In this document: positions 60,885-64,000 of the stretch, one piece after another
How positions within the stretch are numbered: the stretch's first letter is position 1
Layout: each line of letters opens with the position of its first letter
Sequence record: NC_028925.1
From: Escherichia phage vB_EcoM_VR25
Strand: one strand, 5' to 3'
Length of the DNA: 64,000 nucleotides
Notes under the pieces: model-generated
Seen by the model: only the letters and a program-made list of their open reading frames with translations
Databases searched by the model: none
What the model was told of the DNA's origin: nothing
Program-made: the position numbers and the translations under genes

Positions 60885-63800
60885 ATGGCTACTTTAAAAG
60901 CGATACAATTTAAAAGAAGTAAGACAGCTGGTGCCAAGCCTACTGTAGACCAGTTGGTTGAAGGTGAACTGGCTATTAACTTACGCGACCGCACGATTTA
61001 TACCAAAACCGACCAGAACCAGATTATCGACCTTGGATTTGCTAAAGGTGGTCAGGTTGATGGTGATATTCTCCAGAACGGCACATTTAACCTCAATGGT
61101 AATATGTTCGTTTACGCTGGTAAGTATATTGAATTCCTGCCTAAAACTGCCGGTAATGGCGCATGGTCCAACCAGCACTTGAATAAAGCTCCTATCTTTG
61201 CAGATTTAAGTTCAACTACCTCAGTATCAGAATACCATCCTCTGATTAAGCAACGTTATAAAGACGGTACTTTTTCTGCCGGTACATTAGTAAATGAAGG
61301 TAGTTTTAAATTCCATTATATTGATGAAACTGGTCAATCTAAATATTGGACATTTGCGCGCTCAGGTAATTTTCAAGTTGATTCTGGTAATTTATTAGTA
61401 TCTGGTGGGTATTTAGTCGCTCAGAATAATATTGAAACAAGAACAGGTTCTTTGATTGGTCCATCTGTTGTAACTAAAAATATTTCATTTGATACAAAAG
61501 CGTTCGGACAATACGATTCGCAGTCATTAGTTCAATATGTTTATCCTGGAACAGGTGAAGAAAATGGTATAAACTATCTTCGTAAAGTTCGAGCTAAATC
61601 AGGTGGAACCATTTACCATGAAATCGCTTCAGCTCAAACTGGTAAGAATGATGAAATTTCTTGGTGGAATGGAAATACACCTACTACTAAATTAATGGGT
61701 CTTCGTAATGATGGCGCCATGGTATTACGTCGTTCACTTGCTATTGGCACAATTACTGCTGACGAAAATACTAACAACTACGGCTCTCCTACTCCATTGG
61801 GAGAAAGATATATTGCTTTGGGCGATGCTGCCACTGGTTTAAAATACATTAAGCAGGGCGTTTATGATTTAGTAGGTAATTGGAATTCTGTCGCATCTAT
61901 TACACCTGACAGTTTCCGCAGTACTCGCAAAGGTTTATTTGGACGTTCAGAAGACCAAGGCACTACATGGATTATGCCTGGAATCAACGCCGCTCTTTTA
62001 TCAGTCCAAACTCAGGCTGATGTGAATAACGCAGGTGATGGTCAGACGCATATTGGCTATAACTCTGGTGGAAAAATGTCACATTATTTCCGCGGTAAAG
62101 GTCAAACGAATATTAACACTCAAGAAGGCATGGAACTTAATCCAGGTATTCTTAAACTGGTAACCGGTGCAAATAATGTACAATTTTATGCTGACGGCAC
62201 TATTTCTTCTATCCAACCTGTTAAATTAGACAACGAATTATTTTTAAATAGTTCTAATAATACTGCAGGCCTTAAACTTGGTGCCCCTAGCAAAGTTGAT
62301 GGCTCGAGAACTATCCAGTGGAACGCCGGGACCCGTGCAGGACAAAATAAAAGTTATCTGACTATGAAAGCTTGGGGTAATGCATTCGACTCCACTGCCG
62401 GCGAACGCGAAACTGTATTTGAATTGTATGACGGCCAGGGCTATCATTTTTATTCTCAACGTTTAGCTCCGACGGGTTCTGAAACTGTCGGTACTCTTCA
62501 ATTCAGAATTTCTGGCGCTTTACGTGTAGGTGGCGGTATTATATCGGCAGGTTCTATTGTTACTGAATCAAGTTTAGTTGCAAATAATGGATTATCTGTA
62601 AACGGACAAGCTAAATTCGGTGGAACAGCAGATGCATTAAGAATTTGGAATGCTGAATACGGTGCTATTTTCCGTCGTTCAGAAGCAGCATTGCATATTA
62701 TTCCAACTCCTAAAGACGCTGGTGAAAGCGGTGGAATAAGTAATCTCCGTCCATTAAGTATCAGCCTTAATAATGGTATGGTGCAAATGCGACATTCTGT
62801 TACGTTAGGCGATGATGGAGCTGGCGGTAATATGATTACTGTGGACAATGACGGTAAACTTGTTGTTGTTACGAGTCATAGTCGCATTTCTCCTAATTAT
62901 AATATGCAATTAGGACAAAATGCTTATATAGATATTGAGGCTACTGAAGGTGCACGCCCGGCGGGTTGGGGTTCATTTGCATCTCAGAACGATGCAAATG
63001 TCAGGGCTCCGATTTATATGAATATAGACCGTGCCGCTACTTCTGAATATCTCCCTATTATCAAACAACGTTACGTACAGGGCGATAGTACTTATTCTAT
63101 GGGCACCTTAATTTCTCGAGGAGACTTCCGCATCCATTATCACCAAGGTAATAGTACTACCGGCACTGATTTAAGCTGGGAATTCCGCCGCGACGGTGAT
63201 TTCCGCGCTTCGGGTAAAATTATTGCCGGTTCTGTTACTCTTGACCATGATGGTAACATCACAGGTGGTTCTGGTAATTTTGCTAACTTGAACAGTACAA
63301 TTGAATCACTTAAAACCGATATTGTATCAAGCTATCCAATTGGTGCTCCTATTCCATGGCCAACAGATACTCCTCCTGCGGGTTATGCTTTAATGACGGG
63401 TCAGCCCTTTGACAAGAGCACATATCCCAAGCTTGCCGTTGCTTATCCATCAGGTACTATTCCGGATATGCGTGGACAAACTATTAAGGGTAAACCGAGT
63501 GGTCGTGCCGTGCTGAGTGCGGAAGCTGATGGTATTAAGTCTCATAATCATAGTGCTTCTGCATCTAATACTGATTTGGGTACTAAAACCACATCAAGCT
63601 TTGATTATGGTACTAAAACCACATCAAGCTTTGATTATGGTACTAAGACCAGTAATACCACTGGTAACCATAACCATACAGTAAGTGGAACTACTGCCGC
63701 TGCAGGTAACCACCAACACGCGCGTTCAGGTCCTCAGGTACAAGGCGGCATACCCACTAGCGTATTCTATGACGGATACAATACTGTAGGTCCAAACGGC

Positions 63801-64000
63801 AACGCTAAATTCACTGCAACCGTGAGCGGTGCTACTGCATCGTCGAATATGGCCAAAACATCAACAGAAGGTAACCATACTCATACTTGGTCAGGTACTA
63901 CTAGCGCTACGGGTAACCATGCTCATACTGTAGGTATCGGTGCTCACACTCACACTGTAGGTATCGGTGCCCACTCGCATTCAGTAGCGATTGGTTCGCA
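60885..64000 (+). CDS. 37: Long tail fiber distal subunit gp37 (3' end beyond window)
   Basis: Open frame from ATG 60885 to window end; [41 protein letters not shown]... matches remembered T4 gp37; C-terminal His-box region present. Confidence 0.93.
63579..63650 (+). repeat. Tandem 30-bp direct repeat inside gene 37 (two full copies plus a partial third)
   Basis: GGTACTAAAACCACATCAAGCTTTGATTAT repeated head-to-tail, encoding [10 protein letters not shown] twice; followed at 63927-63978 by a 25-bp direct repeat encoding His-box motifs. Confidence 0.85.

Follow-up and report, generated by a model that had tools for sequence, protein, structure and literature searches.

Why should the gene for the tip of a phage tail fiber carry tandem DNA repeats close to its 3′ end, and do such repeats act as a switch of host range? 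The question is raised by gene 37 in the 64,000-nt stretch of Escherichia phage vB_EcoM_VR25 (NC_028925.1) analysed here, called the window below, for which the original prediction had proposed that exact repeats in the receptor-recognition region are substrates for slippage or recombination. We consider it probable (roughly 0.8) that the tandem repeats encode the ascending and descending halves of a repeated rung of the gp37 needle, that the repetition of the DNA is a by-product, and that the perfect identity of the 30-bp copies results from recent gene conversion.

Gene 37 and its T4-type tip

The receptor-binding tip of T4 gp37, reportedly described by Bartual et al. in 2010 (PDB 2XGF), consists of a collar, a needle, and a head. 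Gene 37 of the window starts at 60885 on the + strand, and its ORF is still open at the window end (>64000). The product matches PHROG 1699, 'long tail fiber protein distal subunit' (E=1e-264), and its C-terminus was aligned with T4 gp37 (2XGF, chain 2xgf_A; E=1.2e-73) by phmmer against PDB chains, query residues 1-237 against chain residues 13-221, i.e., T4 residues 797-1005. Upstream of it are ORFs of 1299, 378, and 219 aa, consistent with the order gp34, gp35, gp36. The relative Ge15 is identical to the window across the last 247 nt and, judging from it, the stop codon of gene 37 is about 88 nt past the window end, with the last 29 codons outside the window. The downstream gene of the phage itself is also outside; at the gp38 position Ge15 and VR7 encode a 'distal long tail fiber assembly catalyst' of 183 and 181 aa, respectively. 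These sequence features point to a T4-type distal subunit of the long tail fiber with the adhesin built into gp37. A distal fiber of the T2/T6 type, in which the C-terminus of gp37 is cleaved and capped by a separate ~260-aa gp38 adhesin (PMC3157838), was rejected because the C-terminus is a T4-type needle plus head and the nearest relatives have a short, chaperone-type gp38. The features of the tip are as follows.

60885..64000 (+), gene 37, long tail fiber distal subunit, cut by the window end; ORF and PHROG 1699
63342..63485 (+), Collar domain, aa 820-867; PF07484 (E=3.9e-11, above the curated cut-off), aligned to the T4 gp37 collar (2XGF)
63543..63551 (+), His box A1 (SHNHS), the first ascending HxH; aligned to T4 H883-H885
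63579..63653 (+), ascending-strand repeat, two exact 30-bp units plus a 15-bp partial unit, aa 899-923; TRF, shuffles, translation
63620..63623 (+), putative gene-conversion tract; three changes relative to Ge15, copy 2 made identical to copy 1
63669..63719 (+), His boxes A2 (GNHNH) and A3 (GNHQH), 14 aa apart; ascending half of the 14-aa module
63720..63875 (+), head domain, the variable part that contacts the receptor, A3 and D1 being separated by 52 aa; gapped alignment to T4 932-965
63876..63926 (+), His boxes D1 (GNHTH) and D2 (GNHAH), 14 aa apart; descending half of the 14-aa module
63927..63998 (+), descending-strand repeat: TVGIGAHTH, TVGIGAHSH, then SVAIGS, the start of a third unit
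63945..63953 and 63972..63980 (+), His boxes D3 and D4, within the descending-strand repeat; D5 is cut by the window end

Pfam PF03335 (phage fiber repeat), which is precomputed on many homologues of this tip, did not match the window protein at E 0.01 or better.

The two DNA repeats

Two exact copies of GGTACTAAAACCACATCAAGCTTTGATTAT stand head to tail at 63579-63608 and 63609-63638, and the partial third copy GGTACTAAGACCA lies directly 3′ of the second. No match to GGTACTAAAACCACATCAAGCTTTGATTAT with ≤3 mismatches was found in 100 shuffles, and TRF reported a 30-bp period with 2.7 copies and 94% matches at 63572-63651, confirming the exact pair and the partial third copy that had been predicted. 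This unit encodes a decapeptide in the ascending strand of the needle. The second repeat, ACTGTAGGTATCGGTGCYCAC, was found at 63927-63947 and 63954-63974 and not among the shuffles; it is indeed duplicated, but its period is 27 bp (9 codons) by TRF and not the 25 bp of the original prediction. Its two units are identical at 23 of 27 positions, including an exact run of 17 nt; a third unit has diverged further and continues past the window end. Each 27-bp unit codes for the metal-binding His box xVGIGAHxH of the descending strand; the translations previously given for both repeats were correct. Both are in frame within gene 37, and the other strand has no overlapping ORF of ≥60 aa over either of them.

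Seven HxH boxes were found at aa 887-1032, with gaps of 42, 14, 55, 14, 9, and 9, on both the ascending and the descending strands with the variable head between them. The window end cuts an eighth (D5), whose presence is suggested by the continuation in Ge15. In the alignment, the two repeats match T4 residues 895-909 and 983-1000, while the T4 head, residues of which bind LPS and OmpC (PMC5221442; PMC6957217), covers approximately 932-965. By this alignment, the repeats flank the head and belong to the needle shaft (PMC9659904; PMC5221442; PMC6957217). It was right to place them in the C-terminal receptor-binding tip of gp37, but not in the part of it that contacts the receptor.

Needle architecture

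In tips of this kind the needle is six-stranded and antiparallel, the chains double back at the head, and the HxH motifs coordinate seven iron ions (PMC12609058; PMC9659904; PMC6957217). By homology, the window tip would likewise be a trimer with axial iron ions held by the HxH histidines, and an eighth metal site is likely if D5 is counted. The polypeptide would leave the collar and ascend the needle, with the decapeptide units on the outside of the ascending stretch, build the head that touches the receptor, and then descend. In each xVGIGAHxH unit, two histidines would point toward the fiber axis, where the three chains jointly coordinate a metal ion. An extra descending unit would therefore mean one more axial metal site and would require an extra ascending unit alongside it, so that the two repeat numbers would be locked together. 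Receptor specificity would be placed in the head, between the repeats, and the repeated DNA would follow from the repeated architecture of the protein.

Two contacts published for T4, G921-F970 and G964-H929 (PMC6957217), would imply an antiparallel register with i+j of about 1892, which would bring the decapeptide 895-904 beside AHTHTVAIGS 988-997. Both contacts belong to the upper needle, and the side-by-side packing of ascending and descending units is extrapolated from them, not taken from coordinates. Units of 10 and 9 residues imply a register drift of one residue per rung, for which the rung model does not account in detail.

The window tip resembles that of T4 in its homology across collar, needle, and head (E=1e-73), in the order of its motifs (collar, HxH box, decapeptide, two HxH, head, HxH plus VGIGAHxH units, tail), in the gene order 34-35-36-37, and in the T4-type gp38 chaperone downstream in its relatives. 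It differs from T4 in having one more ascending decapeptide (a clean 10-aa insertion, the second unit) and one more descending nonapeptide, in a longer and different head (52 aa between A3 and D1, against 34), and in the identity of its two ascending units at the DNA level. Writing n for the count of terminal 9-aa His-box spacings, n is 3 in the window phage, with eight HxH boxes (the eighth from Ge15), and 2 in T4, with seven; the needle of the window phage would be three rungs long instead of two.

Coupling of unit numbers across the head

The coupling was tested on a set of 235 distinct, complete homologues of the tip, drawn from phages and prophages and mostly from prophage or temperate-phage fibers. 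They are related and mosaic, so that they do not count as independent events. The number of ascending 10-aa units equalled that of descending 9-aa units in all but one of them, for n from 2 to 6 (n=2, 96 tips; n=3, 125; n=4, 10; n=5, 1; n=6, 2), and the gap from A1 to A2 was 12+10n, within one residue, with the same single true exception (L002). The 14-aa module either flanked the head on both sides or was absent altogether, i.e., (0,0) in 115 tips, (1,1) in 119, and (2,2) in one, without any mismatch among the 235. In a subset of 162 tips, none of 10,000 shuffles was as concordant as the observed set, and on a tree derived from the flanking sequences n changes approximately 19 times. SP18, with a gap of 41 and three 9-aa spacings, keeps the rule though its ascending units have diverged beyond recognition. 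The two repeats are thus coupled and not independent.

Two further apparent exceptions were rejected: P0214 (gap 62 with two 9s) is a C-terminally truncated protein, and in P0235 (n=4) a chance HDH lies inside an ascending unit, where 19+33=52 fits four 9s. The true exception, L002, is a metagenomic contig with an intact ORF that has two ascending units and only two descending spacings and lacks exactly one 27-bp unit. Its mismatch could be an assembly error; taken at face value, it indicates that a mismatched needle is not necessarily lethal, although a change of unit number on one side only would be expected to do harm.

Close relatives showed the same constancy. The comparison with gp37 of relatives that had been proposed as a check found n=3 in the 13 completely read T-even tips with the window's head type, with L002 as the sole deviant, and 58 of the 60 best phage matches cover the identical 521-nt span. 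What looks like a 117-nt "expansion" in O157 typing phage 13 is a run of N, an assembly gap, and was rejected as a copy-number variant. The ascending two-unit state was also found in prophage tips at about 60% identity and is ancient.

Possible recombination and exchange of the head

Among the alternatives, the one that we regard as possible, but tentative, is that the DNA of the repeats and His boxes serves mainly as patches of homology at which recombination between phages swaps the head. Tetart et al. are said to have proposed in 1998 a model of 'recombination between conserved motifs' for adhesin swapping in T-even phages (cited in PMC3157838), and the window shares with their reported His-box (GxHxH) duplications and swaps the gene region, the His-box motifs, and the idea of short DNA motifs that promote recombination. 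The motif GGTAACCATnnnCATAC is found at 63663, 63870, and 63912, i.e., on both sides of the head, and the same head family occurs on both n=2 and n=3 needles. Gene 37 is also mosaic, with a backbone 97.7% identical to VR7 and a tip 98-100% identical to Ge15. However, the mosaic breakpoint relative to Ge15 falls near 63,460-63,520, where the collar passes into the needle and upstream of all repeats and of His box A1, which argues that the needle and head were moved as one piece. Such a role of the repeats would be compatible with the structural explanation, not a replacement for it.

Identity of the 30-bp copies

The two 30-bp copies do not differ at any position in the window, whereas they differ by 3-8 nt in the 13 T-even relatives and by 3-14 nt in other loci; in two relatives in which the repeat peptides are identical, the DNA copies are still 7-8 nt apart. 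The window and Ge15 differ at 13 positions in 521 nt, three of which are clustered at 63620, 63621, and 63623, where Ge15, L002, L082, and L083 all have ACATCT, and these three are exactly the ones that equalise the copies. VR7 has a different 30-bp unit that is likewise perfectly duplicated. The copies therefore exchange DNA, having been homogenized in the window and independently in VR7, and to this extent the predicted recombination between repeats was borne out. Since the three clustered differences from Ge15 give copy 2 the sequence of copy 1, a recent gene conversion over a short tract, with copy 1 as the donor, accounts best for the identity.

The perfect pair might instead be a fresh duplication, one copy having been lost by slippage and the survivor re-duplicated in recent ancestry. 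The end state, two identical copies, would be the same; VR7 is in that state with another unit sequence, and L002 indicates that unequal numbers are possible in an intact ORF. We consider this history unlikely, because it needs two length changes and a mismatched intermediate where conversion needs one tract of at least 4 nt. Moreover, the flanks otherwise hold few differences from Ge15, and the partial third copy is untouched; the age of the two-copy state also argues against re-duplication.

Slippage as a proposed switch of host range

Could the exact tandem repeats nevertheless be hot spots of slippage or unequal recombination, where changes of copy number remodel the tip and shift the host range in the manner of a contingency locus? 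Exact 30-bp tandem copies are good substrates, sequence has been exchanged between copies in two lineages, and the family ranges from n=2 to n=6, as was foreseen in outline. The deficit of exactly one 27-bp unit in L002 and a 15-nt tandem duplication within the head of the relative F31 would also fit. It is reported as well, by Tetart et al. in 1996, that duplications bounded by His boxes expanded the host range of T4. Nevertheless, we regard slippage of this kind as very unlikely. The repeats belong to the shaft, outside the head with its contacts to LPS and OmpC, the full copies are only two, and because unit numbers are locked in all but one of the 235 tips, slippage at one site alone would leave a needle with mismatched halves. 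In most relatives the peptide repeat is retained on diverged DNA, so that identity of the DNA is not a maintained property, and the homogenized junction of copy 1 with copy 1 had no match in viral_contigs or metagenome_contigs, where no variant junctions were seen either. Given the invariant number in close relatives, which the original prediction had itself named as evidence against the idea, a host-range switch driven by slippage is unsupported. A duplication of the specificity segment with end points in GxHxH boxes, as in the laboratory duplications reported by Tetart et al., was rejected, the window having a single head between A3 and D1 and its duplicated units (63579-63653 and 63927-63998) being shaft units that are ancient, fixed in number in close relatives, and coupled across the head.

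Related fiber tips and implications

The tips of lambda Stf and of enterobacterial prophages, the 'T4- and lambda-based RBP family' (PMC9659904), have the same architecture over the last ~215 aa and obey the same rung rule. They differ in their unrelated fiber shafts, carried by siphoviruses and other phages, and are about 50-65% identical to the window tip; among them n spans the full range from 2 to 6, and the 14-aa module is present in some and absent from others. The long and short tail-fiber tips of the Felixounavirus Bas63 also have collar, needle, head, and HxH motifs, but are more distant in sequence, and no pairing rule for ascending and descending units is stated explicitly in that report (PMC12609058).

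Speculatively, the needles of the T4-gp37/lambda-Stf family may follow a two-sided modular grammar (10+9 aa, n=2 to 6; 14+14 aa, 0 to 2) that sets their length and metal sites stepwise, with selection keeping the register despite mosaicism and one-sided intermediates such as L002, which slippage or conversion would produce at units with identical DNA like those of the window, providing the raw material for new lengths. If so, needle length might tune the reach of the head through the LPS or capsule layer.

The current understanding of T4-type fibers is not overturned by these results; the repeats are an ordinary, rule-bound trait of a protein family and no host-range switch. They mark the shaft of the tip and not the determinant of specificity, and the prediction or engineering of host range should target the head (63720-63875) and keep the repeat numbers matched. 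The homogenized 30-bp pair, with its independent counterpart in VR7, suggests that short-tract gene conversion acts inside T-even fiber genes. The coupling rule (equal numbers of units, paired 14-aa modules) offers a check from sequence that flags mis-assembled or defective tips, and it can guide designers in lengthening or shortening the needle.

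The repeats and their gene

Two tandem repeats lie in frame within a single ORF, which starts at 60885 and is still open at the window end, and the opposite strand has no ORF of ≥60 aa at the repeats. As originally predicted, GGTACTAAAACCACATCAAGCTTTGATTAT is present as two head-to-tail copies (63579-63608 and 63609-63638) followed by a partial third copy (TRF, period 30 bp, 2.7 copies), while the 30-bp unit with ≤3 mismatches was not matched in any of 100 shuffles. ACTGTAGGTATCGGTGCYCAC is found at 63927-63947 and again at 63954-63974, in units that are identical at 23 of 27 positions; by TRF these units recur every 27 bp, not every 25 bp as had been proposed. 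Gene 37 also has weak short repeats towards its N-terminal end (61002-61020 and 61098-61414), namely ACCAAAACCG in 1.9 copies and 29-nt GGTAAT-rich units of 66-76% identity.

The ORFs immediately upstream (1299, 378, and 219 aa) correspond to gp34, gp35, and gp36, as named in the VR7 annotation, and the repeat-bearing ORF itself is hit by PHROG 1699 ("long tail fiber protein distal subunit", E = 1e-264) and contains a Collar domain (Pfam) at aa 820-867. Its final 238 residues align with the T4 gp37 tip chain 2XGF (E = 1.2e-73), against which the second ascending decapeptide is a clean 10-residue insertion. The closest DNA relative of the tip is phage Ge15 (97.5% over 63480-64000, the last 247 nt being identical), where gene 37 continues for 88 nt beyond the position of the window end; the next gene there encodes a "distal long tail fiber assembly catalyst" of 183 aa. 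Judging from the T4-tip alignment and this downstream gene of Ge15, the tip is assigned to the T4 type, with the adhesin built into gp37, and not to the T2/T6 type, which relies on gp38 as a separate adhesin (both types as defined in PMC3157838).

Position of the repeats in the tip

The T4 tip is a six-stranded antiparallel needle, in which the chains double back at the head (about residues 932-965) and HxH motifs coordinate seven axial iron ions; the head binds LPS and OmpC at the surfaces of its top and sides (PMC12609058, PMC9659904, PMC6957217, PMC5221442). In T4 the ascending His boxes are A1 (883-885), A2 (915-917), and A3 (929-931), and the descending ones are D1 (966-968), D2 (980-982), D3 (989-991), and D4 (998-1000), a numbering consistent with the residues named in PMC6957217. 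The counterparts in the window are as follows.

His boxes and head of the VR25 tip, on the given strand
63543-63551, His box A1, ascending
63669-63677, His box A2, ascending
63711-63719, His box A3, ascending
63720-63875, head, between the two repeats
63876-63884, His box D1, descending
63918-63926, His box D2, descending
63945-63953, His box D3, descending
63972-63980, His box D4, descending
cut by the window end, His box D5, descending (from the Ge15 continuation)

On the ascending strand, A1 and A2 enclose the 30-bp repeat; on the descending strand, the 27-bp repeat makes up the series D2-D3-D4-(D5). Because these stretches flank the head, both repeats are assigned by alignment to the shaft of the tip and not to its receptor-contacting end; the predicted location in the receptor-recognition region thus holds in that the repeats are inside the receptor-binding tip, as shaft rungs on either side of the head and not as adhesin loops.

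A His-box DNA motif, GGTAACCATnnnCATAC, occurs three times around the head (63663-63679, 63870-63886, and 63912-63928; 82-88% identity), and these copies may possibly serve as a homology patch for head swapping.

Coupling of the two repeat numbers

Homologous tips were collected by a search of 5.8 billion proteins, an exhaustive HMMER search of 50% representatives, IMG/VR loci, and annotated phage records. In the resulting set of 235 complete, distinct tips, A1 and A2 are 12+10n residues apart (±1), n counting the 9-residue spacings between the terminal His boxes: n is 2 in 96 tips, 3 in 125, 4 in 10, 5 in one, and 6 in two. One of the n = 4 tips (P0235) obeys the rule only if a chance HDH in its ascending stretch is disregarded. 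For T4, n is 2, with seven His boxes; for VR25, Ge15, and VR7, n is 3, with eight. The 14-residue His-box spacing behaves likewise, being found on both sides of the head in 119 tips, on neither in 115, twice on both in one, and on a single side in none of the 235. When the descending counts were shuffled in a 162-tip subset, the observed concordance was reached in 0 of 10000 trials. A rough tree built from the flanks implies ~19 changes of n in this subset; given how short that tree is and how mosaic the genes are, the figure indicates only that many lineages were sampled.

In Shigella phage SP18 (GQ981382.1), the ascending A1-A2 decapeptide repeats have diverged past recognition, and the stretch, 41 aa long, still agrees with its three descending 9-aa spacings; since this non-repetitive stretch obeys the rule, it favours a length constraint over common ancestry of the repeats as the explanation. 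The sole true exception is a tip on a 10.5-kb IMG/VR contig (IMGVR_UViG_3300030021_000020, L002), with an intact ORF starting at about 1680, which has two full ascending GTK units and two 9-aa descending spacings, one 27-bp unit being missing; it may be a real one-sided variant or else the product of a collapsed assembly.

A structural basis can be proposed from contacts published for the T4 tip, where G921 packs on F970 and G964 on H929 of the neighbouring chain (PMC6957217). These contacts would give an antiparallel register of i+j ~1892, which on extrapolation down the needle would place the decapeptide 895-904 beside AHTHTVAIGS (988-997). The axial metal sites would then run A3, D1, A2, D2, D3, D4, and A1 from the tip downward, the descending nonapeptides each contributing one core metal site, which an ascending decapeptide would cover from the outside. 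One-sided slippage is expected to be harmful, not adaptive.

Copy number and apparent exchange among relatives

All completely read T-even tips with the head family of the window have two full ascending units, a partial one, and three 9-aa spacings, and 58 of the 60 best phage matches to 63480-64000 span exactly 521 nt. Slippage had been predicted to alter repeat number; this comparison instead shows both numbers fixed among close relatives, and in all but one of the 235 tips they are locked together. Since the same head family is also found on n = 2 needles (P0005, L004, and L015, a tip protein and two loci), coupled changes of n have happened with the head type unchanged.

E. coli O157 typing phage 13 (KP869111.1), one of the two remaining matches, was rejected as a length variant: it has a run of N just past His box A2, where gene 37 is unannotated, and the assembly seems to have broken in the repeat-rich tip. 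The other, vB_Eco_F31 (OP870147.1), has a 15-nt tandem duplication in the receptor-contacting head (GPQIQGGVPQGGVPTS versus the 11-residue version of the window), so that this relative does vary in repeat number within its specificity region.

VR25 shares 97.7% identity with its backbone relative, the Gaprivervirus vB_EcoM_VR7, over 36000-60800. At the border between collar and needle (about 63,460-63,520), identity to the Tequatrovirus Ge15 climbs from about 63-80% to 98-100%, and the remainder of the window is VR7-like; the VR7 tip has a shorter, different head on an n = 3 needle. The whole needle-plus-head module appears to have been swapped horizontally as a unit, and such module-wise exchange would keep the two repeat sets matched.

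Homogenisation of the repeat DNA

In 13 T-even relatives with the head family of the window, the two ascending copies differ at 3-8 of 30 nt, even where the peptides are identical (7 nt in AndreasVesalius, 8 nt in F31), and distinct pairs across all loci are 3-14 nt apart; the pair of the window shows no difference. VR25 and Ge15 differ at 13 of 521 nt, and three of these differences (63620, 63621, and 63623) are exactly those that make copy 2 match copy 1: Ge15, L002, typing phage 13, and locus L083 share ACATCT in copy 2, where VR25 has the ACCACA of copy 1. The identity of the pair is most economically explained by a short templated conversion of copy 2. Loss of one copy and its re-duplication could possibly give the same pair, but this requires two events. 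Conversion of VR25 copy 2 would not be the only homogenisation, since gene 37 of VR7 (HM563683.1) also has a perfect 30-bp ascending pair with another unit (GGTACTAAGACCACCTCATCATTTGATTAT), which indicates an independent event and hence at least two. The homogenised junction of VR25 had no match in viral or metagenome contig collections.

The idea that the repeats are recombination substrates is therefore borne out at the level of the DNA, as the homogenised pairs of VR25 and VR7 show, while unit number is fixed among close relatives. Taken as a whole, the original prediction is partly supported, namely for the tip location and the recombining DNA. The feature amounts to a new allele within a well-known protein architecture, to which the explicit pairing rule and the evidence of conversion are modest additions. 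For phages mogra and moha, the depositors marked the descending His-box units as a "repeat_region" (locus positions 754-822 and 738-793, respectively), so that the repeat had already been noticed, uninterpreted, in public records.
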